A stretch of DNA of 22,217 nucleotides, from IMG/VR virus record IMGVR_UViG_2693429700_000019. One strand, written 5' to 3'. The notes beneath the pieces were generated by a model. The model saw only the letters and a list, made by a program, of their open reading frames with translations. It was not told the DNA's origin and ran no database searches. The stretch is from a virus (lineage: Duplodnaviria > Heunggongvirae > Uroviricota > Caudoviricetes). Below are positions 1,305-17,880 of the stretch, in pieces; within the stretch, counting starts at the first letter, position 1; each line of letters opens with the position of its first letter. Made by a program: the position numbers and the translations under genes.

Positions 1305-1909
1305 GCGTTTACTCTCAGATTATCAATTAAATGAATGGCTGGGGCAGGGAAATAATCCCCTTCGACAATAATGGACTCCGGGGTGTAGGGATAAACCGTC
1401 AGGGCATCGCCGTGATAGCATCCCGTACCAACGAAAATCTTTCCGTTCACACTCAGGCTGATCGCCAGCCCCGTCAGATGGCGACTTACTGGTTTTGCAT
1501 CCGCAATAAGGCGCTCAAGTTCCTGATACATTTCATCGGTGATGCCCTGATCAAGTACTCCGACAACAATGCGAAATGTTCCCGGCTCCTCGTTGAGTTG
1601 CCACCACTCCTTTACTTCAATCAGGTAGCCGAGAGGCTCCACGGCTCTTCGCAGTGCGCTGATGGTCCCTTTGTGTCGGTGTATCAGCCATGCATCACGA
1701 ATCACCTGTCGCTTTGTCTCTTCCGGCCAGTTGCGATCCCAGCGGTCAACGGAAAACGCCCAGGCGAGATAAGGCAGCAGATGCACCGGGCAGGTGTCCG
1801 GCGACCACAGTGTGTTGAGGTCTACCGGAATGTCTGTAATGCGTGTTCCGACGGCTTCGGCACAACGCATGAAATTGCTGGCTGATGGTGGTAACAACGA
1901 ATTACTCAT
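1301..1909 (-). CDS. I: Baseplate/tail protein gpI
   Basis: Translation from the internal Met (MSNSLLPP..) contains WSPDTCPVHLLPYLAWAFSVDRWD..VIRDAWLIHRHKGTISALRRAVEPLGY..ERLIADAKPVSRHL, as in P2 gpI. Start sits 4 nt after the J stop. Confidence 0.85.
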   Translation of the reverse strand: MSNSLLPPSASNFMRCAEAVGTRITDIPVDLNTLWSPDTCPVHLLPYLAWAFSVDRWDRNWPEETKRQVIRDAWLIHRHKGTISALRRAVEPLGYLIEVKEWWQLNEEPGTFRIVVGVLDQGITDEMYQELERLIADAKPVSRHLTGLAISLSVNGKIFVGTGCYHGDALTVYPYTPESIIVEGDYFPAPAIHLIDNLRVNA

Positions 1910-2798
1910 TGCGTCCACCTTCGCTGATGGTGAATGACTCACAGCGCGCCGCCTGTATGTCGCTGATGGCCATATTCTGTGTGGGTTCGATTATCTCCAC
2001 GCGTTGCACACCGTGCACATGCAGTGCGGCAGCAATGGCGGACAACGCCACGTCCTGACCGATAAGCCCCTGCTCAGCCAGCCACTTCCTGAACGACGAT
2101 TCAGCCGCGGCCAGAATAGGTTCGGATTCCGGGCCGGGGTAAAAGTACAGTTTTGCATTCAGCCGCCATGTCACGATTCTGGCGCTCTGTACGGTCAGGC
2201 GGTCGGCCACCGGGCGGGTATCCTCTGCATTCAGAACGGCGCGAACGGTATTAAGCAACGCCTCCGTTGCTGTGCCGTCGCCTTCAGTGGACAGGATGGA
2301 AACCGTCACACAGGCCGGAGACGGGCTGATGGCCCGCGCATCACGCACCAGACCGCTGGCGCTGCGTGCAAAATACTCGTATGCACCTGACGGGCCAGCA
2401 ACACTCAGGCCGTCATACGCCCGTTGCGCCCGCAATCTCAGCGAGGTGTCGCTCTCCATCACCGCGTCGGTGGTATCCGTTGCCGGAGTGATAACCAGGC
2501 GCTTTGTGTTCATATTGCCCGCGAGGTTGTCCTGGTTTGTCCCTGAACCGTGGCTTAACATGCAGGCGCGTGCGCCCTCGTTAACCCGCTGGCGTAACAG
2601 CATTTCACGAAAAGACATGGTTTGAGCGATAACGTTCAGGGGTTCCGACTCCAGCTCCAGCGCGGCGGAGACGGCTTCACGCTGTTCGGCAGGATAGGAC
2701 GCAATCATCATGGCCTTTGTGTCAGCCAGAATTGCCTCAAAATCAGGCTCCGCGATGATGGCGGGTTCCGGTAACTGGGAAAGGTCAACAGCAGGCAT
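1902..2798 (-). CDS. J: Baseplate assembly protein gpJ
   Basis: 298-aa ORF, size and position (between W and I) as in P2 J; typical baseplate J-family translation. Confidence 0.8.
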   Translation of the reverse strand: MPAVDLSQLPEPAIIAEPDFEAILADTKAMMIASYPAEQREAVSAALELESEPLNVIAQTMSFREMLLRQRVNEGARACMLSHGSGTNQDNLAGNMNTKRLVITPATDTTDAVMESDTSLRLRAQRAYDGLSVAGPSGAYEYFARSASGLVRDARAISPSPACVTVSILSTEGDGTATEALLNTVRAVLNAEDTRPVADRLTVQSARIVTWRLNAKLYFYPGPESEPILAAAESSFRKWLAEQGLIGQDVALSAIAAALHVHGVQRVEIIEPTQNMAISDIQAARCESFTISEGGRNE

Positions 2799-2801
2799 GA
2801 T

Positions 2802-3152
2802 TTACTCTCTCAGCGTGATGGTTAATTCAACATTCTGCATGGTCTGCATGACAGTGCCCGACAGCGTCACCCCGGCGCGGCCTCCTGCCTTCCAGACAAC
2901 GTCGATGGCGTCCAGGGCAATGCGGGGTTCCCATCGTGTCAGCGCAATCACGGCAGCACTCATGCATTGCAGACGCGTGGTGTTATTCATGGGTTCGTCA
3001 ATCAAATCAGGCACAAGGCTGCCATATTCCCGTCGCATAACCCGGCTGGCCAGCGGGGTGGTCAGGATGTCCCTGACTGACTGTTTCAGGTGCTCCATAT
3101 CGTTCAGGTTTCCCGTTCCGTCCGGGTTCATTCCTGTGTAGCGGGTTGTCAC
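2802..3152 (-). CDS. W: Baseplate protein gpW (GPW/gp25 family)
   Basis: 116 aa; position between V and J; 4-nt overlap with V (3149-3152). Confidence 0.8.
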   Translation of the reverse strand: MTTRYTGMNPDGTGNLNDMEHLKQSVRDILTTPLASRVMRREYGSLVPDLIDEPMNNTTRLQCMSAAVIALTRWEPRIALDAIDVVWKAGGRAGVTLSGTVMQTMQNVELTITLRE

Positions 3153-3730
3153 TGCGGGCCTCCTGTCGAATCGCTGCCACCTTTAACGCCACCGTGCTTA
3201 TGCGTATGCACTGTGATGCCGTTTGAGGTGAAATCGCCGCCGCTGTGCGTGATATTGCCGCTCATCTTTCCCCCTTTTGTGACGTCAAGCGTCGCTGTTC
3301 TCAGAAGGTTTGTGCATTCCACGACGGGCGTATCCAGTGTCACGCTGACGGATGCCTGCAGGGTGGCTGTTTTCATGCCGCTGGCGCTCAGTGCGCCAGC
3401 GTCTGCGTCGTAGCGGAACACCGCGCCATCCGGCGCGCTGACCACGATTTCTTTCAGGCTTTTGCCGGGGGCCGGACTGGCATCACTCCACAGGCTGCCA
3501 ATTATCATGGCGGTTTCCGGGTTGCCGCCAATGCAGGCAATTACCACCTGTTCGCCTGGTGATGGCGGCAACCACACATTGAAGGCACCCGCGCGCGTGG
3601 TGTTCCAGCGCAGCCAGCCTGTTTCCAGTTCGCCGCTGCGAACGCGCACGCACCAGGATTCCTCATCAACTTCAGAGATGATCCCGGTGCGGATGATGTT
3701 GCTCAGCAGCCGCATGAGTTCTGCGCTCAC
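3149..3730 (-). CDS. V: Baseplate spike/assembly protein gpV
   Basis: 193 aa, glycine-rich C-terminus (HTHKHGGVKGGSDSTGGPQ) typical of P2 V-type spike; synteny. Confidence 0.8.
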   Translation of the reverse strand: MSAELMRLLSNIIRTGIISEVDEESWCVRVRSGELETGWLRWNTTRAGAFNVWLPPSPGEQVVIACIGGNPETAMIIGSLWSDASPAPGKSLKEIVVSAPDGAVFRYDADAGALSASGMKTATLQASVSVTLDTPVVECTNLLRTATLDVTKGGKMSGNITHSGGDFTSNGITVHTHKHGGVKGGSDSTGGPQ

Positions 3731-4371
3731 CGTACAGCCTCCGCAATCCGGCCCAGCACCGTGTTATAAATCAGGCGTTCATCTGTCTGGCTGATACCCA
3801 GCAGCTCACGTACCGGGTAATCGGTGAAAATGCCCGGCGCAACCTGATCGCGCTCACCGAACTGATGAACGCGTGCAATACGTGCAGCCACGCCGCTGTA
3901 ACCCACCGTCACACCGGAAGCATCTGCACGGGCTTTCAGGTAGCGGGCGGTGCGCAGTTTTACGAACATGGGGACGCGCCTGGTGCTGTCCTGGTTGATG
4001 CGCCGGGTGCGTATTTCCAGAAAACGGTCGATGTCATCCCGGTAAAACGTGCGGATATTGTTTTTATCCTCATCCCACCCGGTAATGGTTCGCCCGTATT
4101 TCCCCGTGTCGTGATGCCAGTTTTTCAGCGTGCGTGCTTCGTTATTCCAGATAAAGCGAATGCGTTCCTGTATCCGGGTTACGCGGCGTCTGCGTGGTGT
4201 CCACGCGGTCCCGTCCGGCGCTTTCTGTGACCGGATACGCGCCTGCTGGGCGCGGCGTAAATTCTGTGCCAGCTTTCTGGCGATGTTATTGATGGCCTGC
4301 TGATTCAGGCTGTCGCGGATGGCCTCAAAGGTTTCATCCACGCGGGTGAATGCCTTATCCATCGCTTTCAC
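3727..4371 (-). CDS. S: Phage virion morphogenesis / tail completion protein (gpS-like)
   Basis: 214 aa basic protein between R and V; synteny with P2 R-S-V. Longer than P2 S, so assignment is by position and general family character. Confidence 0.6.
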   Translation of the reverse strand: MKAMDKAFTRVDETFEAIRDSLNQQAINNIARKLAQNLRRAQQARIRSQKAPDGTAWTPRRRRVTRIQERIRFIWNNEARTLKNWHHDTGKYGRTITGWDEDKNNIRTFYRDDIDRFLEIRTRRINQDSTRRVPMFVKLRTARYLKARADASGVTVGYSGVAARIARVHQFGERDQVAPGIFTDYPVRELLGISQTDERLIYNTVLGRIAEAVR

Positions 4372-9787: not shown

Positions 9788-11539
9788 ATGATTCAGGACG
9801 CTTTTGTGCGCCAGCGTGCGCGGCAACTTTACTGGCAGGGTTATCCGCCCGCAGAAATATCACGTCTGATGGGAATAAACCCGAACACGATTTATGCGTG
9901 GAAAAAACGCGACCAGTGGGATGAAACGCCACCCGTGCAGCGTGTCACGCAGTCCATCGATGCGCGCCTCATCCAGCTTACTGAAAAACAGAATAAAACA
10001 GGTGGTGACTTCAAGGAAATAGACCTGCTGACCCGGCAGCTTAAAAAGCTGCATGATGGCCAGCCGGATGTGATGGCCGCAGGAAAGAAAGGCCGGGCGA
10101 AAAAACTCAAAAATCATTTCACGCCGGAACAGATTGCCGCACTGCGGGAAAAAATCATCAGCAGGCTGGAGTGGCATCAGCGGGGCTGGTTTGACTCCCT
10201 GACCCTTTGCAGGGAAGCCGGGATACGTAACAGGATGATCCTGAAATCCCGACAGATTGGGGCGACCTGGTATTTTGCACAGGAAGCACTGCTGATGGCG
10301 CTGCGTGACGATGTGGCACAACCTTACCAGCGTAACCAGATTTTTTTGTCTGCGTCGCGTCGTCAGGCGTTCCAGTTTAAAAGCATTATTCAGAAGGCTG
10401 CGGCTGAAGTTGATGTGGAGCTGAAAGGGGGCGATAAAATCATCCTCTCCAACGGCGCAGAGCTGCATTTTCTTGGTACTTCTGCTGCGACGGCACAGTC
10501 CTACACGGGCAATTTTTATTTTGATGAATTTTTCTGGGTCAGTCGCTTTGCTGAACTGCGCAAGGTGGCTGGCGCTATGGCAACCCTCAGCGGACTGCGG
10601 CGCACCTACTTCTCCACGCCATCCACCGAAACGCACGAGGCATACGCCTACTGGAATGGCGACCGCTGGAACGAGAAAAAGGCCACGCATAAACGCCAGC
10701 GTTTTTCTGTGGACTGGAAAACGCTGCATAACGGGCTTATCTGCCCTGACCGGACGTGGCGGCAAATTGTCACGCTGGAAGATGTGGTTAATCACGGCTG
10801 GAAACACACCGATATTGACGAAATTCGTGATGAAAACACCGAAGACGAGTTCCGCAATCTCTATATGTGTGAGTTTGTCCGCGAAGGGGAATCGGCATTT
10901 AACCTGAATATCCTGATTGGCTGCGGTGTTGACGGATACGACGACTGGAAAGACTGGAAACCTTTTGCTCCCCGCCCGATGGGAAATCGTCCGGTATGGA
11001 TTGGGTATGACGCAAACGGCAGCAGTGGAAACGGCGACAGCGGCGCTGTGTCCGTGGTGGTTCCTCCGGCTGTTCCTGGAGGCCGTTTTCGAACGGTGGA
11101 GACGCGACGCGTTCAGGGGCTGGAGTTTGAAGAACAGGCCAGAGTCATTGAAGAGTTCACGTGTCGCTACAACGTGGAACACATCGGCATTGATGTGACG
11201 GGCGAGAACGGGGAGGCTGTTTATCAGATAGTGAAACGGTTTTTCCCTGCTGCTATTCCGTACACCTTCACGCTGTCATCAAAACGGTCGCTGGTACTGA
11301 AAATGCTGCAAATAATGCGTGCCGGGCGGTGGGAATATGATCGCGCCGAACGCGAGCTGGTCGCAGCCTTTAACGCCGTGCGTAAGGTGAAAACACCGGG
11401 CGGCTTTATCACTTACGAAACGGACCGTGCGAGGGGGATCAGCCACGGCGACCTTGCGTGGGCAACCATGCTTGCTGTCATTAACGAACCGATTGGCGGC
11501 GAAGGGGAAAACGAGCGTTTTACGGTTATGGAGTTCTGA
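9788..11539 (+). CDS. P: Terminase large (ATPase) subunit gpP
   Basis: 583 aa; size and position as in P2 P; 1-nt overlap with the portal start (TGATG at 11537-11541). Confidence 0.85.
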   Translation: MIQDAFVRQRARQLYWQGYPPAEISRLMGINPNTIYAWKKRDQWDETPPVQRVTQSIDARLIQLTEKQNKTGGDFKEIDLLTRQLKKLHDGQPDVMAAGKKGRAKKLKNHFTPEQIAALREKIISRLEWHQRGWFDSLTLCREAGIRNRMILKSRQIGATWYFAQEALLMALRDDVAQPYQRNQIFLSASRRQAFQFKSIIQKAAAEVDVELKGGDKIILSNGAELHFLGTSAATAQSYTGNFYFDEFFWVSRFAELRKVAGAMATLSGLRRTYFSTPSTETHEAYAYWNGDRWNEKKATHKRQRFSVDWKTLHNGLICPDRTWRQIVTLEDVVNHGWKHTDIDEIRDENTEDEFRNLYMCEFVREGESAFNLNILIGCGVDGYDDWKDWKPFAPRPMGNRPVWIGYDANGSSGNGDSGAVSVVVPPAVPGGRFRTVETRRVQGLEFEEQARVIEEFTCRYNVEHIGIDVTGENGEAVYQIVKRFFPAAIPYTFTLSSKRSLVLKMLQIMRAGRWEYDRAERELVAAFNAVRKVKTPGGFITYETDRARGISHGDLAWATMLAVINEPIGGEGENERFTVMEF

Positions 11540-12585
11540 TGAGCAGAAAAAATAAAAAAGTGCGCATGAGTTCACGCATTGATCTCGCTGATGCGCTCAG
11601 GAAAGAATCATCGCTCAGTGCATTCACATTTGATGGTCCTTATCGCCTGACCGGGCATGACCTGCTGGACAATATGTACTGTGCTGATAACGGGCGGTGG
11701 TATGAAACCCCGGTGGACTGGTACGGTCTGGCAAGAGCCGCCCGGCAAACGTCCTGGCATCAGTCTGCGCTTTACTTTAAGCGTAATGTATTGCTCGGGT
11801 GCTACATCCCGCACCCGCTGCTTTCCCGGCAGGATTTCTCGGCGCTGGCGCTGGACTGGTTTGTGTTCGGTAACGCATTCCTTGAGCTTCGGAGCAATAT
11901 GCTCGGCGAACCGCTTAAATTACGGCACGCCCTGGCGAAATACATGCGACGCGGAAGCGATCTTGAATCATGGTGGTATGTGCAGGATGGCAAGGACGCG
12001 TTCCAGTTTCGCCCTGGCAAAGTGTGCCACCTGATGAATCCGGATATTAACCAGGAAATCTACGGCATGCCGGAATATCTTGGCGCATTACTCTCGGCCA
12101 GCCTTTCTCATTCGGCGGACATGTTCAGAAAACTGTATTACGACAACGGATCCCACGCCGGGTGCATCATCTACATCGGTGCAGCGCAGGTAAACCGCGA
12201 AAGCATGGACTCCCTGAAAGAAACGTTACAGGGTGCGCGTGGTGGTGGTGCATTTAAAAACGTGCTCATTCATGCGCCCAACGGGGGCAAAGAAGGGGTG
12301 CAAATTTTGCCGTTCCAGCAGATCACCGCAAAGGATGAGTTCATGAATGTTAAGGCGGCATCCCGTGATGATGTGCTGGCTGCGCACCGCGTTCCGCCGC
12401 AACTGATGGGGGCGATGCCGGGCGAAAAAAGTGCGTTTGGTGATGTGGAGAAGGCCGCGCGGGTTTACGCAATTAACGAGCTGATGCCCGTCATGGAGGC
12501 CATGAAGCACATCAATGACTGGCTTGGCGAAGAGGTGATCCGCTTTAACCCTTACGCACTGTTAGACACCCAGCCCACATCCTGA
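11539..12585 (+). CDS. Q: Portal protein gpQ
   Basis: 348 aa, coupled downstream of P; P2 Q is portal and has the same size/position. Confidence 0.85.
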   Translation: MSRKNKKVRMSSRIDLADALRKESSLSAFTFDGPYRLTGHDLLDNMYCADNGRWYETPVDWYGLARAARQTSWHQSALYFKRNVLLGCYIPHPLLSRQDFSALALDWFVFGNAFLELRSNMLGEPLKLRHALAKYMRRGSDLESWWYVQDGKDAFQFRPGKVCHLMNPDINQEIYGMPEYLGALLSASLSHSADMFRKLYYDNGSHAGCIIYIGAAQVNRESMDSLKETLQGARGGGAFKNVLIHAPNGGKEGVQILPFQQITAKDEFMNVKAASRDDVLAAHRVPPQLMGAMPGEKSAFGDVEKAARVYAINELMPVMEAMKHINDWLGEEVIRFNPYALLDTQPTS

Positions 12586-12635: not shown

Positions 12636-13033
12636 GACTCTCCAGCTCCTGTATCAGTCAGATAATTTCACGATGCTTTCCTGCTGATTGCCATCATCGA
12701 CAGTCAGACTCTTACGCAATCCCACCGCGTTGACTGCATGTTCTCGCCGTCTCAGTGCGATTTTGACGGCCTTACCTTTCACCCCATCAAATCAAAAGCC
12801 CTCACGTCTTTTTCACGCTCAGCGTGAGAAATACAGCCATTCTGTTCTATCTCTGCGACATCGTTCAGGGAATGCTATTTACCCCCTGAAACGCGGGCTG
12901 TTCCCCCGTCACCTGCGCGCAGAAAAAACGCGTTTTTTTGTGCACGTACGGATCCTTGACGGATCCAGCCACCACGCGGGCCGGAAGTACAAAAAGTCGT
13001 TCAAAAAAATTGTGCAAACTTGTGCACTATCGT

Positions 13034-13063
13034 GCAAACAAAAAAAGCGCCTTATCGGCGCTT
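13034..13063 (-). terminator. Rho-independent terminator (minus strand) just downstream of the 89-aa gene
   Basis: Minus-strand RNA forms aagcgcc-gataa-ggcgctt followed by TTTTTTTGTTTG. Confidence 0.7.
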
Positions 13064-13071
13064 CAAAAGTA

Positions 13072-13341
13072 TCAATTGTTGCTGTTTATTAATCGCCAAC
13101 CACGAACATATGCTTCATAGGCATCTCTGTGCCTTACAGTTCCAGCCTGGCTAAACGGAATGTTAGCTAAAACTAAATCATTCTGAGCCATAGCGCGTCC
13201 TTCAAGCGCATCTTTTATGCCTAGCTCAAAAGCACAGGCAGCGCATTTGTGCCGACCTTCTTGTCCTTGATATTCAGGGAGAGACAGAAATGTTGGATTA
13301 TAACGATGAGGGTTCTTGCAAATACCTGTTTTAGCCCGCAC
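13072..13341 (-). CDS. Hypothetical small protein (89 aa) with Cys/His cluster; GTG start
   Basis: ORF with SD-like gaggt upstream of GTG; contains C8, H12, H41-K-C43-A-A-C46; followed by a clean intrinsic terminator. Not recognised by me. Confidence 0.5.
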   Translation of the reverse strand: MRAKTGICKNPHRYNPTFLSLPEYQGQEGRHKCAACAFELGIKDALEGRAMAQNDLVLANIPFSQAGTVRHRDAYEAYVRGWRLINSNN

Positions 13342-13470
13342 TTTATTTACCTCATAGGAAAAATATGCGTGCCTTTACAGAGGTGCGTGTAAGCAATAAA
13401 ATATACGACGCACATTTTGATTTACTTCGGAAGGCACGCATATCAGGTTAAGTGAGTCCGACCGAGTTTT

Positions 13471-13500
13471 ACGCCCCAATAGTTGCTGCTATTGGGGCGT
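13471..13500 (+). other. 12-bp-stem hairpin acgccccaatag-ttgctg-ctattggggcgt with short flanking T runs (weak terminator-like or structural element)
   Basis: Perfect inverted repeat read from sequence; TTTT before and TTT after on plus strand. Confidence 0.4.
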
Positions 13501-13705
13501 TTTGCATGGACAATGCCGCGCAATTATCTTGTCGCTCACAATGCGAACGATCTTACAAAAAGGCACATTACTGTCAAGATAATTGATCGTTTTAATCGAT
13601 AGATAATAGACAATCTATTTGTTTAACAGATCGATTATTGAAGTAAGTGTGCCAAATGGAATGATACTGTCTCTATAAACGTGAGCATTTTTCGCGCAGA
13701 TGCTT

Positions 13706-14017
13706 TTACTCAGGAAATAACGCCCGGATATTCCCAGCCATCTGGCTGGTTATCTTAGCCACTGGTGCAGACTGTGCTTCAAACTTTTTTGAGCTGATTT
13801 GTGTCACAGGTAACATCTCATCATCAGCCCATGCGGCCAGTCGGTAAGCCTCTGCCGGATTCGTCTTCAGAAGTGCCAGCCCGGCCAGAAAAGCCACGCG
13901 TTGGCCGCTTTTGCGGGCTTCTGGTGTAAGGCTGTCCAGCCAGGCGCATGCTTCTCCTTCGTTCTTGACGGCGGCGGGCTTCAGATAGAAACTTATCCGT
14001 CTGGTTGGTGTCGTCAT
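13706..14017 (-). CDS. parR: ParR/StbB-like centromere-binding adaptor (type II partition), 103 aa
   Basis: From Met MTTPTRRISFYLKPAAV..WLDSLTPEARKSGQRVAFLAGLALL.. ; resembles plasmid R1 ParR N-terminal region as I recall it. aaggag SD lies inside the last codons of the upstream ParM gene. Confidence 0.7.
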   Translation of the reverse strand: MTTPTRRISFYLKPAAVKNEGEACAWLDSLTPEARKSGQRVAFLAGLALLKTNPAEAYRLAAWADDEMLPVTQISSKKFEAQSAPVAKITSQMAGNIRALFPE

Positions 14018-14021
14018 TGGT

Positions 14022-14981
14022 TTACTCCTTGTCCATTGCGTACAGCCCATTAACCAGAGCAAACTGTGGCACCCCGTCCGCGATGAAAGTCGCATTAACT
14101 CCGCAGGCTTCGCGGATAGCGGGTGCCACAATCTCCGCCCCGCCACCGACAACCATCACCCGCCCGTAACCCGAAAAAACCGCCAGCGCGCGGATCACGC
14201 GTTGTTTCAGTGTTTCTTCCTTTTCACGAATAACCGCCATCAGGCTGGCGTAATGCGCGTCATTGTGGATGTGCTGGCGCAGCCAGGCTTCATTATGGCG
14301 ATGTTCGATAATGGTATTGGCGATGTGGTGACTGGTGCGCATACCGTTAGTGGCCATCACCGACAGTACGGCATCGGCCATAAGAGAAACGCCTACGTGT
14401 GGATCGCAAAACACCTGGCTGATACCTGCCAGTTGCCCCTGAACCTTTGCCACATCCAGCGTGGTTCCGCCCAAATCCACAATCAGCAGGGATTCAAACG
14501 GACTCATGTCAGCCAGTGCTTTAAAGCCAGCCGGAATGGATTCAGGCATAACCCGTACGTTACGGATAGTGAATGCTTCGCCGTTCTGGTACTCCACCGG
14601 GCGCATGACGTTCGCTTTTTTGCGGTTGATGTTGGCCATGTCCGGCTGTGCGTTTGTGTCGAAATATTCGCTCAGTGGCAGGGTAACAACCACATCCACT
14701 TCCTGTGGCGTGATGTCTGATTTGACCAGCGCGTGATGAATGGCAATGACATTCACATCGCTGTACTGGTATTGCGTGTCGGTCGTCTGGACAAAGCGAT
14801 CGCTGACCGGATCAAAACCATAGCGCACGCCATCAAGCATGTAGTTAGCAGGCTGCGAGCCACCGAACGGCGCAGACCATTCCGACTTGAAGCTGTTCGG
14901 GCTGATGGCGTTGCGGCGTTCGCCGTTCTCAGTCCATGCCAGCTTGATGTTGGTGGAGCCGTCGTCGATGTAAATTTTCAT
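14022..14981 (-). CDS. parM: ParM/StbA-like actin-family segregation ATPase, 319 aa
   Basis: Actin-fold signature motifs IDDGSTNIKL (phosphate 1), LIVDLGGTTLDV (phosphate 2), VMVVGGGAEI (adenosine) and overall colinearity with plasmid R1 StbA/ParM as I recall it. Confidence 0.85.
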   Translation of the reverse strand: MKIYIDDGSTNIKLAWTENGERRNAISPNSFKSEWSAPFGGSQPANYMLDGVRYGFDPVSDRFVQTTDTQYQYSDVNVIAIHHALVKSDITPQEVDVVVTLPLSEYFDTNAQPDMANINRKKANVMRPVEYQNGEAFTIRNVRVMPESIPAGFKALADMSPFESLLIVDLGGTTLDVAKVQGQLAGISQVFCDPHVGVSLMADAVLSVMATNGMRTSHHIANTIIEHRHNEAWLRQHIHNDAHYASLMAVIREKEETLKQRVIRALAVFSGYGRVMVVGGGAEIVAPAIREACGVNATFIADGVPQFALVNGLYAMDKE

Positions 14982-15012: not shown

Positions 15013-15125
15013 TTTACGGGATTCTGAAATCCCGTTTTTGCCTGTTTTGTGCGCGCTTCATATATCGCTGCGCGTTTTTTGCTCATTTACGGGATTCGTG
15101 AGTCCCGTTTCTGTCTGTTTTTTGT
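15013..15125. repeat. Two ~38-bp direct repeats, each with an internal hairpin and T-rich tail, spanning the A stop codon and the A-parM intergenic region
   Basis: tttacgggattctgaaatcccgtttttgcctgttttgt (15013-15050) and tttacgggattcgtgagtcccgtttctgtctgttttttgt (15086-15125); internal dyads acgggatt/aatcccgt and acggga/tcccgt. Confidence 0.7.
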
Positions 15126-17880
15126 TTCCACTGGTCAGGCCACCCCGCAGCAGGTCTGCTTTGCGGCTGGCGCGTTCAGTGGTTTCACTGATTCTCTGTG
15201 CGTGCTCTGCGTCGCGGATGGCGCGCAGCATGTCAGAAAGCACGGTAACGGGTGTTTTCATGGTGTTCTGGTCCTGCTGAAGTGTGGATGCCAGGCGTGC
15301 GGCGGCTTCAGGGTCTGATGCCCCCAGCTGTGCCAGATAGCTGGCGACCGGGTTATGGCGGATCTCCGTGCTGCTTACGCCATGATTACGGCTCAGACGC
15401 TGCCAGAGCTGCGTGATTCGGCTGTCCGGGCGGGTATCCGGTTTGCGTACAATTTCAAATCCCTGCGGTGCAATGATGCTGCCGTCAACGTACAGACTGC
15501 CGCCCCGTAACAGGTGCTGCATCTGTTGTTCACCGATATGCAGGCCGAGAGATTCAGCAGACTCCCGCCATTCTTTAGCGAGTAACTCGTGGTTATCAGG
15601 CAAAGGCCGCTGCTGTTTGCGGCTCTGTGTCCAGTTCTGCATTTCATCGCTGCTGTTTTTTGCCTGTTTGTCACGAAGCGAACGCATCAGCGCCCGGCGT
15701 TCGTGCCGTTTCAGTGAGCGCATCCATTCATTTACTTCAACGCCGTCAGGAAGCTGCGGCCACGGTGCTGGCCGTTCTTCCGGCTGTTCTGTCCCGTTGT
15801 TGCCTGTTTCCTGTACACGGGGACAGTTATTGCCACGAGTCCAAGGGGCGGCAGGGCCGCCCTGAAGGTCAAAACCATTTTCGCGGGCGCTGTCTTCCGC
15901 TTCCGGTTTACGTCTTACCAGCTTCCAGTTATCCGGATGCGTGCACACACGGGAGGATTCCCCGATGAATGGCGACCAGATCCCGTAAATCTGTACACTC
16001 TGTTCGCCGTAATCGTTCAGCTCATCTGCGAGGTCGTAGGCTGTGCGAATCAGGTAGTCCTTGCGCGGAACAAGTACGCCACCCTGTTTTTCAATGTAGG
16101 TGGCAAAACATCCGGCATCAGCGGCAGCGAGTACCGCATCCATTGCGTCATCCTTCAGCCGTTGCGGGCCTTCCGGGTTGCGTGCCATCTGGCTGGCAAG
16201 GCGGCGGAGTTCACGCCACACCTGACGGGAGGGGATGCCAAAGAACTGGAACTGGCGGACCCGGTGAAGGCGCGCCCAGCCGATGGCTCGCTCCACGCTC
16301 TCGGCCATTGATTTACCTGTTTCGTGGTCAACGCGTGGCTTGCCCGTTTTCGGGTCGATGCCATCCACGGCGCGGCTGTCCAGGTTCTTTCCGATGTAGG
16401 TGGCGATGTAGCTGGTTGGCGTGCCTTTTGAGCCGTCGACGTACTCCGCCTTAAAGCGTGGGGTAATATCATCACCCAGCTCGTGACGATCTTCCTGAAT
16501 GGCAATATCGCGGGTGTGGGACACAATGGTGTCGATTTCTTCCGGATGAGCAAAGACCATCATATGCCAGTGCACGGTGCCGTCATGGTGAGGCTCCACC
16601 GTGCGGATGCCATACCAGCGCAGGCCGTCGCGGTTCAGTTTCTTGCGGACCGCTGCAAAAAACGTGTTAACCAGGTAATCGCTGGAGTCGCGCATGGTGG
16701 CCCCGTTCCATTTGGGATTCGGATGACCGTTCTCTGTTGTGGCGTGGTATTTTGACGGGCAGGTGACAGTTAGAAACACCGCTTTGTCGCCACGGGCTTC
16801 GGCCAGAAGTTCCAGCCCCTTCATGGTGGCCATCATTTCTGCCTTACGGTGAACCGGGTTACTTACTCCCGCGTAATACACTGTCTCGAGATCAATCGTG
16901 AACCCGTCTTCGTTTTCCAGCATGAAACTTTTCAGGAAATCGCGTGTTTTCTCGCGCTGTGCGCGAAACTCGCTTAACGCGTCCTGGCTCAGATAGGGTG
17001 ATGTTTTTCTGGAAACCAGACAGGCGGCGCGGAGTTGTTCTTCTCTCCACTCGCAACGTAACAGCCACAGTTTGCGTTTCCACCATTCCGCACAGGTCAG
17101 GCGAAGGATTGCGCCCGGCAGCAGCTCCGTGTCCGGTTCGTTCCTCCGGTCTTTATCTGTTGTCAGTGCGTCATAATGTGGAGGCATGATGTGCAGGTGT
17201 AACGCCATGCGGGCCAGCATCTGATACGCCTTCAGCGTTACATCCATGGTCAGTTCGCCATCGGTCGCGCCAAAGCCATCGCAGAGTTTTTCGAAGGTGC
17301 TGCTGAACATCGCCGCCGTCATGGTGGCCAGCGTCTGTATCTGGTGTTTGTTGAGCTGCGGCAGGTAAAGCAAATCGTCCAGGCGTTCGCGTCCGGCAAG
17401 GGAGCGATAACCCGGTGTCAGCCAGTGTCCGTCAGTGCGATCCAGACGTTCGAATATTTTGCGCAGGGTTCCGCGTGCATAGCGTTCCGCCTGCCAGCTC
17501 TTTTTGCCTTTCCGGCGATCGGCTTCCTGTTTTTTGCGCAGGAAGGAGAGGTGGCGAATAAGCGGATCGCGCAGATAGGACGGCAGCAGGCGCAGCGAGG
17601 CCATGGCTTCATCCACCGCGCCGCGTGCCTGTTTTCTGGCGTCTCCTGCCAGTGTGATGGTTTTGTCCTGTTTTTCCTGTGCGTCCAGGCTTTTATTAAT
17701 CAGGTTGCCCAGTGGCGTGGCGGAGAACGCCGCATCAGCCATTTCCTGGCGGCGCTCGTTCTCTACCCGGTAGGCATCCAGCCAGGAGGAAAGCGCGGAT
17801 TCAGGAGCGGGGATCCCCGTTCCTTCACGCCCCACTGCGTGGCGCGGTTGTTGCCAGTCCCTGATGTACTCTGCCGTCAT
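15058..17880 (-). CDS. A: Replication initiation protein A (HUH rolling-circle endonuclease, P2 gpA family), 940 aa
   Basis: HUH-type motif ..DGTVHWHMMVFAHPEE.. and catalytic tyrosine motif ..SYIATYIGKNLD.. in the middle of the protein; position upstream of the cargo locus and downstream of early small ORFs as in P2. Confidence 0.8.
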   Translation of the reverse strand: MTAEYIRDWQQPRHAVGREGTGIPAPESALSSWLDAYRVENERRQEMADAAFSATPLGNLINKSLDAQEKQDKTITLAGDARKQARGAVDEAMASLRLLPSYLRDPLIRHLSFLRKKQEADRRKGKKSWQAERYARGTLRKIFERLDRTDGHWLTPGYRSLAGRERLDDLLYLPQLNKHQIQTLATMTAAMFSSTFEKLCDGFGATDGELTMDVTLKAYQMLARMALHLHIMPPHYDALTTDKDRRNEPDTELLPGAILRLTCAEWWKRKLWLLRCEWREEQLRAACLVSRKTSPYLSQDALSEFRAQREKTRDFLKSFMLENEDGFTIDLETVYYAGVSNPVHRKAEMMATMKGLELLAEARGDKAVFLTVTCPSKYHATTENGHPNPKWNGATMRDSSDYLVNTFFAAVRKKLNRDGLRWYGIRTVEPHHDGTVHWHMMVFAHPEEIDTIVSHTRDIAIQEDRHELGDDITPRFKAEYVDGSKGTPTSYIATYIGKNLDSRAVDGIDPKTGKPRVDHETGKSMAESVERAIGWARLHRVRQFQFFGIPSRQVWRELRRLASQMARNPEGPQRLKDDAMDAVLAAADAGCFATYIEKQGGVLVPRKDYLIRTAYDLADELNDYGEQSVQIYGIWSPFIGESSRVCTHPDNWKLVRRKPEAEDSARENGFDLQGGPAAPWTRGNNCPRVQETGNNGTEQPEERPAPWPQLPDGVEVNEWMRSLKRHERRALMRSLRDKQAKNSSDEMQNWTQSRKQQRPLPDNHELLAKEWRESAESLGLHIGEQQMQHLLRGGSLYVDGSIIAPQGFEIVRKPDTRPDSRITQLWQRLSRNHGVSSTEIRHNPVASYLAQLGASDPEAAARLASTLQQDQNTMKTPVTVLSDMLRAIRDAEHAQRISETTERASRKADLLRGGLTSGNKKQTETGLTNPVNEQKTRSDI

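Follow-up and report, generated by a model that had tools for sequence, protein, structure and literature searches.

Locus organisation and cargo cassette

The stretch of DNA analysed here (22,217 nucleotides (nt) of the IMG/VR virus record IMGVR_UViG_2693429700_000019, Caudoviricetes; hereafter the window) belongs to a P2-like (Peduoviridae) Escherichia coli prophage. It is identical to the prophage adjoining pdxB in E. coli WS3294A and shows ~98% identity with Escherichia phage 520873. We describe a small gene of this element, named Z, which encodes an 89-amino-acid (aa) Cys/His protein. Z is an independently acquired cargo gene of the P2-like prophage hotspot and, in most of the non-phage genomes that were sampled, it is a component of Dam-family/DpnA-type (GATC) restriction-modification (R-M) operons.

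Along the window, the terminase gene (9788-11539, plus strand) and the portal gene (11539-12585, plus strand) are followed by a cos-side non-coding block and then, on the minus strand, by a small open reading frame (ORF), parR, parM and the gene of a 940-aa gpA-type replication protein. The small ORF is Z (13072-13341, minus strand). It starts with GTG and is preceded, 7 nt 5' of this codon, by the Shine-Dalgarno sequence GAGGT (13349-13353, minus strand; read "acctc" on the plus strand). At the same coordinates RefSeq contains WP_001594304.1, labelled "hypothetical protein". The protein (roughly 10 kDa, isoelectric point (pI) 9.2, net charge +4) is composed of two repeats and contains C8, H12 and the cluster H31-K32-C33-A34-A35-C36. 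The first-pass annotation, which was made from the nucleotide sequence alone, had called a GTG-started ORF of 89 aa behind a Shine-Dalgarno-like GAGGT motif and had singled out C8, H12 and an H-K-C-A-A-C cluster; ORF, motif and residues are all confirmed. A spurious ORF or a pseudogene is ruled out by the conservation and the intactness of the gene.

Z is carried by a variable cargo cassette of 669 bp (13037-13705), bounded on one side by the conserved cos/portal-side block and on the other by parR. In three related prophages with other cargo, the homology to the window extends to 13036 and starts again at 13706 with the parR stop codon, and the interval is occupied by an Ead/Ea22-like gene, a frameshifted DUF3800 gene or an unrelated 134-aa ORF. 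The GC content is 42% over 13000-13750 versus 53-59% in both flanks, which agrees with the AT-rich surroundings, relative to the structural genes, that had been noticed at first reading. The cassette was found in 166 of the 5,426 complete E. coli genomes, with at least 98.8% identity and on the chromosome in every case. The flanking cos-side block is present in 1,424 E. coli genomes, of which only these 166 have the cassette; Z is therefore not a core gene. Even E. coli copies left without a gene call by the annotation pipeline have an intact ORF. In E. coli CH4793, the cassette is split by an IS1-family element.

Rousset et al. 2022 (PMC9122126) described a cos-proximal gpA-gpQ hotspot with many anti-phage genes in P2-like phages; the cassette, with its variable content and its position between replication gene A and portal gene Q, corresponds to cargo of this hotspot. 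The supplementary table of this study lists the exact arrangement of the window, with the gene as "hypothetical", and also StbA plus Plasmid_stab_B alone and with other additions (PMC9122126). No published test of the Z gene was found in the literature searched.

Downstream of Z lies an intrinsic terminator (13033-13064, minus strand) with an 8-bp stem containing 5 GC pairs, a 5-nt loop and a U-rich tail: the stem GAAGCGCC/GGCGCUUU (13044-13064, minus strand) is followed by the tail UUUUUGUUUG. The hairpin reaches -13.8 kcal/mol (z = -2.9; 3 of 200 shuffles equal it), and the terminator scan found 7 terminator-like sites in the region versus 2.2 expected. Both scan and folding thus agree with the strong minus-strand terminator that had been proposed behind the ORF. 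The idea of a moron-like, separate cargo gene with its own terminator also stands, since other prophages swap genes at identical boundaries. The first-pass annotation had further placed the gene in the same hotspot as parMR; Z does adjoin parMR in the gpA-gpQ hotspot, but a functional tie to ParMR is unsupported by the distribution of Z homologues.

Protein family and predicted fold

A single-sequence, word-indexed homologue search gave two near-identical proteins; the relatives came from exhaustive phmmer and profile searches. The comparison by phmmer with 1.84 billion representative proteins gave 173 Z relatives, and a profile search of a 5.8-billion-protein collection gave 1,544 clusters, all of them unnamed and without Pfam domain. 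The family spans many phyla and matches phrog_3941 (unknown function) over its full length (E = 9.1e-49, residues 4-89 to profile positions 1-86 of 86). The term "orphan", given to the family at first, is consequently not appropriate. Profile and structure-prediction searches, as suggested by the first-pass annotation, were run: beyond phrog_3941, the Z protein has no match in Pfam or NCBIfam, PADLOC-DB returned 0 families at E <= 1, and no relative was found among solved structures. No paper describing the Z family was found in the searchable literature, whose coverage of journals is incomplete. Lack of conservation or a match to a P2 core protein had been named as evidence that would speak against an accessory gene; the ORF is conserved and no P2 core protein was matched.

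The Z protein consists of two tandem internal repeats. Repeat 1, C-x3-H...LPxxQGxxGRHKCxxCA(Y/F)xxG, carries the Cys/His ligands. In repeat 2, LPxSQAGxxRH(K/R)...AYxxG, the loop and the AY-xx-G helix are kept but the cysteines are lost. In an alignment of 91 sequences, eight residues (H12, R30, H31, C33, C36, Q65, R70, H71) do not vary, and at least 90% of the sequences have C8; the window protein carries every residue conserved in the family (alignments of 54 and 91 sequences). Since the ligands C8, H12, C33 and C36 are conserved, the binding of zinc by these four residues is plausible. The AlphaFold2 model built from the family alignment (predicted local distance difference test (pLDDT) 86.5, predicted template modelling score (pTM) 0.81) has two alike helix / beta-bridge / helix units. 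In two metagenomic proteins of 182-187 aa (P0003 and P0153), the whole two-repeat protein is duplicated in tandem (Z-Z).

Association with GATC-type restriction-modification operons

We fetched 80 loci encoding Z homologues from species-representative genomes and clustered the neighbouring ORFs; 79 loci were scored. This sample covers Proteobacteria, Bacteroidota, Firmicutes, Spirochaetes, Actinobacteria, Chloroflexi, Verrucomicrobia, Myxococcota and Campylobacterota. A methyltransferase is encoded within four genes of Z in 53 of the 79 loci, and both a methyltransferase and a nuclease are found nearby in 49; none of the recurrent neighbour families is present in 24. Five neighbour families, labelled A to E, recur: A, a Dam-family methyltransferase (PF02086, MethyltransfD12 / TIGR00571; 48 loci); B, a DpnA-like methyltransferase (PF01555, N6_N4_Mtase; 32 loci); C, the DpnII endonuclease (PF04556; 29 loci); D, a DUF6996-DUF6997-DUF7226 protein (12 loci); and E, a PDDEXK_11 nuclease (8 loci). 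Searches of the PDB and NCBIfam gave no functional name for the D and E nucleases.

These neighbours are mostly co-oriented with Z and typically separated by gaps of 5-20 nt, in orders such as A-Z-C-B, A-C-.-B-Z, A-D-Z, A-E-Z and Z-A-E. Z is located directly upstream of the DpnII endonuclease gene in 18 of the 29 DpnII-type loci and is the last or the first gene in other operon types. The constant partner is thus a GATC-type methyltransferase, and the nuclease comes from any of three unrelated families.

Seven loci with the Firmicutes-type A-Z-C-B order (L024, L026, L037, L045, L046, L058 and L066) have a common promoter region (TTGCTA...TATTCGAGTTTTAGAATATAAT), ~40-70 nt upstream of the Dam-like gene, whose spacer contains a TTC-N8-GAA-type palindrome. 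This palindrome may be an operator; the loci are closely related.

Nuclease and regulator fusions

The module is also found fused to other domains. A two-repeat version with cysteines in both repeats forms the N-terminus of nucleases: among 50 long homologues, the partner domain is NOV_C in 24, HNH in 10 and HNH_2 in 5. One of the 50 is a HEPN fusion. Single Z copies terminate DndB-like and WYL proteins. A metagenome scan based on the NOV_C fusions located the fused nucleases within the same R-M operons, in the orders A-[2xZ-nuclease]-C-B, A-E-[2xZ], B-E-[2xZ] and D-E-.-[2xZ]. In three Bacteroidota operons (L017, L069 and L095), the module is the C-terminal domain of a DndB-like (DGQHR) protein of ~470 aa, encoded between the DpnII-type nuclease and the second methyltransferase.

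Orphan copies in phages and bacterial genomes

The window copy is an orphan, as the prophage annotation includes no methyltransferase and the cassette holds the Z gene alone. This is the usual situation in viral contigs, of which 37 out of 40 are without R-M neighbours and three have them. In the P22-like Salmonella phage BIS08P22, cI, one small ORF and the homologue succeed one another on one strand, ahead of the N gene; rexAB takes this position in lambda. Three viral contigs have the homologue directly after a cI-like gene (S24-peptidase motif, identified by eye). In Providencia phage PSTCR7lys, it is inserted between Q and the lysis genes in the opposite orientation and adjoins a tRNA, and further viral copies are found beside umuDC-like cargo at contig ends.

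Among the 24 bacterial loci without recurrent neighbours, 14 belong to Enterobacterales (8), Vibrio, Alteromonas-like marine gammaproteobacteria (4) and Gilliamella. As is well established, a resident Dam occurs in these lineages. The single R-M-linked locus labelled as coming from a Dam-positive lineage is L066, a contig attributed to an E. coli metagenome-assembled genome; its A-Z-C-B operon clusters with the Firmicutes copies in the tree, and the contig is probably mis-binned.

Neighbour-joining places the orphans in clades of their own and groups the window protein with the Gilliamella and enterobacterial phage copies. These separate clades indicate that the orphans are a long-maintained lineage and not fresh debris; recently decayed R-M operons, considered as an alternative origin, are ruled out by the old and separate clades.

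A Vibrio kasasachensis locus (L089, 4995-6544) encodes the homologue 11 nt upstream of a Guanylate_cyc-domain protein and a predicted membrane protein, a Pycsar-like pair; a radical-SAM gene is located a few kb upstream, and the region resembles a defence island.

Predicted expression signals and neighbouring features

A consensus scan predicts a sigma-70 promoter upstream of Z (13550-13577, minus strand; TTGACA, 16 nt, TAAGAT; 10/12 matches), the -10 hexamer of which is overlapped by a GATC at 13549. The mRNA would then begin with a putative structured 5' leader of ~200 nt (13342-13543, minus strand), whose presumed start is taken from the promoter scan. The segment folded (13545 to 13330) has a minimum free energy of -73.4 kcal/mol (z = -4.8; 0 of 200 shuffles as stable). 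Within it are a hairpin of 12 bp (13472-13499) and an inverted repeat of 13 bp (13363-13375 / 13431-13443), the base of which reaches the Shine-Dalgarno sequence of Z and may occlude it. Z is probably expressed in the lysogen from its own predicted promoter, through this strongly structured leader.

A palindrome-rich element with GATC at 13549, 13585 and 13629 (13548-13652) overlaps the promoter and extends upstream. A GATC-rich palindromic element with ~75% identity is present downstream of parR in another P2-like prophage (locus L218, ~2530-2640), which carries an unrelated cargo gene, and the promoter and the 13472-13499 hairpin are likewise kept there at ~75%. The element precedes an unrelated cargo gene elsewhere and is therefore not specific to Z; it was rejected as a Z-specific operator on this ground. 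The promoter/hairpin/palindrome module may belong to the hotspot or to the par backbone, and the 13548-13652 element could be a par centromere-like site or a common hotspot promoter module.

Other features of the window are given here for completeness. On the plus strand, a promoter-like site (13374-13402; TTTACA, 17 nt, TAAAAT) is followed by the 13472-13499 hairpin with a U-tail; this unit could yield an RNA of ~100 nt antisense to the Z leader (13374-13505; fold z = -3.0). Rfam gave no family at gathering thresholds over the whole window, and the cassette region gave weak terminator-like matches only. A mechanical ORF call makes parR 148 aa long from a TTG start (13706-14152, minus strand), overlapping the end of parM; the RefSeq version of 103 aa (13706-14017) agrees with the range matched by Plasmid_stab_B / phrog_2515 (residues 46-148). 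The gpA-type replication protein (15058-17880, minus strand) is one uninterrupted 940-aa ORF in the window. It is annotated as three coding sequences in Escherichia phage 520873 (positions 1464-4284 of the retrieved locus) and is frameshifted or of other length in two related E. coli prophages. The whole window is poor in GATC (55 observed versus ~85 expected from base composition).

Interpretation and alternative explanations

The hotspot slot, the moron idea and the listing of this arrangement as "hypothetical" were already known. What appears to be new is a widespread and structurally unmatched Cys/His module that occurs regularly in DpnII/Dam-type R-M operons and is carried alone by temperate phages. 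As a working interpretation, to which we give somewhat less than an even chance, we suggest that Z is a zinc-stabilised, pseudo-symmetric two-repeat nucleic-acid-recognition module tied to GATC methylation, which would act in the prophage without enzymes of its own. Three observations suggest such a module and its tie to GATC and GATC methylation: it is placed in the fused nucleases where target-recognition modules usually are, the likely specificity is all that the partner methyltransferases have in common, and Z is found alone chiefly in hosts that methylate GATC anyway. A short palindrome would be well matched by two near-identical QxGxxRH loops within one chain. In the R-M operons, Z would target or modulate the action of the nuclease at GATC sites. 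In the prophage, where Z is unaccompanied by enzymes and the host Dam supplies the GATC methylation, it would act by occupancy or by regulation on DNA that is unlike the methylated chromosome, for example incoming or freshly replicated DNA. The net effect might be the exclusion of other elements, the protection of phage DNA or gene regulation.

Several points weigh against this interpretation. The R-M-linked free proteins have a median pI of 6.3, near neutral, versus 8.5 for the orphans and 9.2 for the window protein. The DNA binding of Z, like its GATC specificity, is putative. GATC specificity is secure for the DpnII partner only and, for the D and E nucleases, relies on the Dam-family methyltransferase. 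GATC is not enriched upstream of the Z-containing operons (0.28 per 200 nt versus a background of 0.41), and GATC clusters as marks of their promoters are unsupported for this reason. As fusions of C proteins (the controller proteins of R-M systems) to restriction enzymes are known (PMC12707154), the nuclease fusions are also compatible with a plain transcription factor. No effector is obvious for a copy that lacks a nuclease in a Dam-positive host. Finally, the genome and metagenome loci were retrieved by peptide patterns from consensus-like sequences, and the R-M fractions given above are not an unbiased census.

A bolder version of this interpretation, which we regard as unlikely, makes Z a new-fold, zinc-stabilised reader of the methylation state of GATC. 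Mobile R-M systems of the DpnII/Dam type would use it, free or fused to nucleases, to find unprotected sites, and the temperate phages of Dam-positive bacteria would have captured it alone, with the host Dam mark as "self". The prophage would thus discriminate or regulate DNA by the Dam "self" mark while encoding neither enzyme; Z might recruit a GATC nuclease of the host, for example MutH, or might reshape local Dam methylation, which would amount to an epigenetic lysogenic conversion.

The main rival to GATC recognition is that Z is an analogue of the C proteins, that is to say a small transcription factor with a new fold which times or limits the expression of the restriction enzyme through an operator unrelated to GATC. 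As an orphan controller, the phage copy would in that case control phage or host genes or hinder incoming Z-controlled R-M systems. We consider this unlikely. The size of the proteins (84-90 aa) is like that of C proteins, and the place of Z immediately 5' of the endonuclease gene in 18 of the 29 DpnII-type loci is what a controller would occupy. The fusions to regulator-type WYL and DndB-like families and the position of some phage copies next to cI point in the same direction, and both C-restriction enzyme fusions and exclusion by a pre-expressed C protein are documented (PMC12707154). The TTC-N8-GAA-type palindrome could be a corresponding operator, but it is found only in the promoter spacer of closely related Firmicutes A-Z-C-B operons. 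C proteins are helix-turn-helix (HTH) proteins with many specificities, whereas Z has no HTH match in Pfam and no fold relative and keeps to Dam/DpnA-type systems whatever the nuclease family. Moreover, the operon often ends with Z (A-D-Z, A-E-Z, A-C-.-B-Z), and the promoter element 5' of the window gene is found 5' of an unrelated cargo gene as well. Early expression of a GATC nuclease would be harmless in a Dam-methylated host, which makes exclusion by an orphan controller implausible in E. coli.

Less probable again is an action by protein contact: Z would inhibit the Dam-type methyltransferase or its partner nuclease, or modulate one of them, for instance to delay restriction during establishment, and the phage copy would either counter restriction or modulate the Dam or the MutH of the host. 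The tight operon coupling with methyltransferase A or B, the near neutral or slightly acidic character of the R-M-linked members and the enrichment of orphans in lineages with a resident Dam would all fit. However, the partners are mutually unrelated (D12 versus N6_N4; DpnII, DUF6996-7226, PDDEXK_11, HNH and NOV_C), so that a single binding surface is hard to picture, and the N-terminal place in the nuclease fusions is typical of target-recognition modules. Z is also not strongly acidic, unlike DNA mimics, and anti-defence genes are rare in P2 hotspots (28 of 1,511 elements; bioRxiv 10.64898/2026.02.27.708500).

We likewise find it improbable, and slightly more so, that Z is a prophage factor for defence or superinfection exclusion, either stand-alone or as the sensor half, acting independently of GATC, with an R-M link that would merely reflect common defence-island neighbourhoods. 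The location in a gpA-gpQ hotspot rich in anti-phage genes (PMC9122126), the rexAB-equivalent slot in the P22-like phage, the Vibrio copy 11 nt upstream of a Pycsar-like cyclase and membrane-protein pair with a radical-SAM gene near, and the fusions to nuclease and HEPN effector domains are in favour of such a factor. Yet no PADLOC model was matched, the 89-aa protein has no effector domain, and the association is with Dam/DpnA-type operons specifically, co-oriented and tightly spaced, not with defence genes generally. Finally, a role of Z as an accessory of the neighbouring ParMR partition system is very improbable: in the co-occurrence check that had been proposed, all 166 E. coli cassette copies abut parR, with a conserved palindromic element between parR and Z, but parMR is found in the hotspot also without Z and with other cargo, Z homologues are present without parMR in P22-like and lambdoid phages and in R-M operons, the cassette boundary falls exactly at the parR stop codon, and this independent distribution largely refutes the role.

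DpnII/MboI-type systems and Dam methylation have been heavily studied, yet a conserved component found in many phyla was apparently left undescribed. If Z reads GATC or controls R-M, it would represent a new DNA-recognition fold and a new layer in the establishment or the DNA targeting of mobile restriction systems. Its repeated lone capture by temperate phages of Dam-positive enterics, in slots for expressed repressor-linked or hotspot cargo, is notable in itself, and whether a phage exploits or counters host methylation can be tested directly on the prophage copy, a gene of 270 bp in E. coli, for which dam mutants are available.

Comparison with known systems

C proteins (C.PvuII, C.BamHI, C.Esp1396I) are the closest in size and place: like Z, they are small accessories (~80-100 aa) of R-M operons, often encoded just 5' of the endonuclease gene. 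Fusions to the endonuclease occur occasionally, and orphan or pre-expressed copies can hinder incoming systems (PMC12707154). C proteins differ from Z in being Xre-type HTH dimers with many specificities; Z is a Cys/His two-repeat protein without HTH match, and thus not of the Xre-type fold that defines C proteins, and it occurs in Dam/DpnA-type operons only and at variable positions. Like the target-recognition or reader domains of restriction enzymes (the DpnI winged-helix domain; SRA and others joined to HNH or PD-(D/E)xK nucleases), the two-repeat Z module is fused to nucleases; it is N-terminal to HNH, HNH_2 or NOV_C domains, where a DNA-recognition module is usually found. These reader domains have no sequence or fold likeness to Z, and the window protein is without nuclease domain. 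The Z-fused nucleases cannot be methyl-GATC-dependent like DpnI, because a Dam-family methyltransferase adjoins them. Another conserved extra gene of an R-M operon is prrC in the EcoPrrI Type I locus, which like Z encodes neither a methyltransferase nor a canonical endonuclease (PMC12707154). PrrC is a large anticodon nuclease, activated upon inhibition of restriction, whereas Z has 84-90 aa and no catalytic domain.

On the phage side, the Ogr/Delta late activators of P2-like phages and P4 are, like Z, small Cys-rich proteins. Their Cys/His spacing is unlike that of Z, and Z is not a core gene; a true Ogr/Delta-like gene is annotated apart from the cargo slot in a related prophage. An Ogr/Delta zinc-finger activator was rejected for lack of an Ogr_Delta match in Pfam, a search that matched no P2 core protein either. 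DNA-mimic anti-restriction proteins (Ocr, ArdA) were rejected as well, as Z is basic and not acidic and has no Pfam or PADLOC match. The lysogeny morons P2 old/tin and lambda rexAB have no sequence relation to Z, for which an exclusion phenotype would be hypothetical; they occupy the same slots as members of the Z family and have in common with the window gene an atypical GC content, a terminator and an own promoter, which in Z is predicted.

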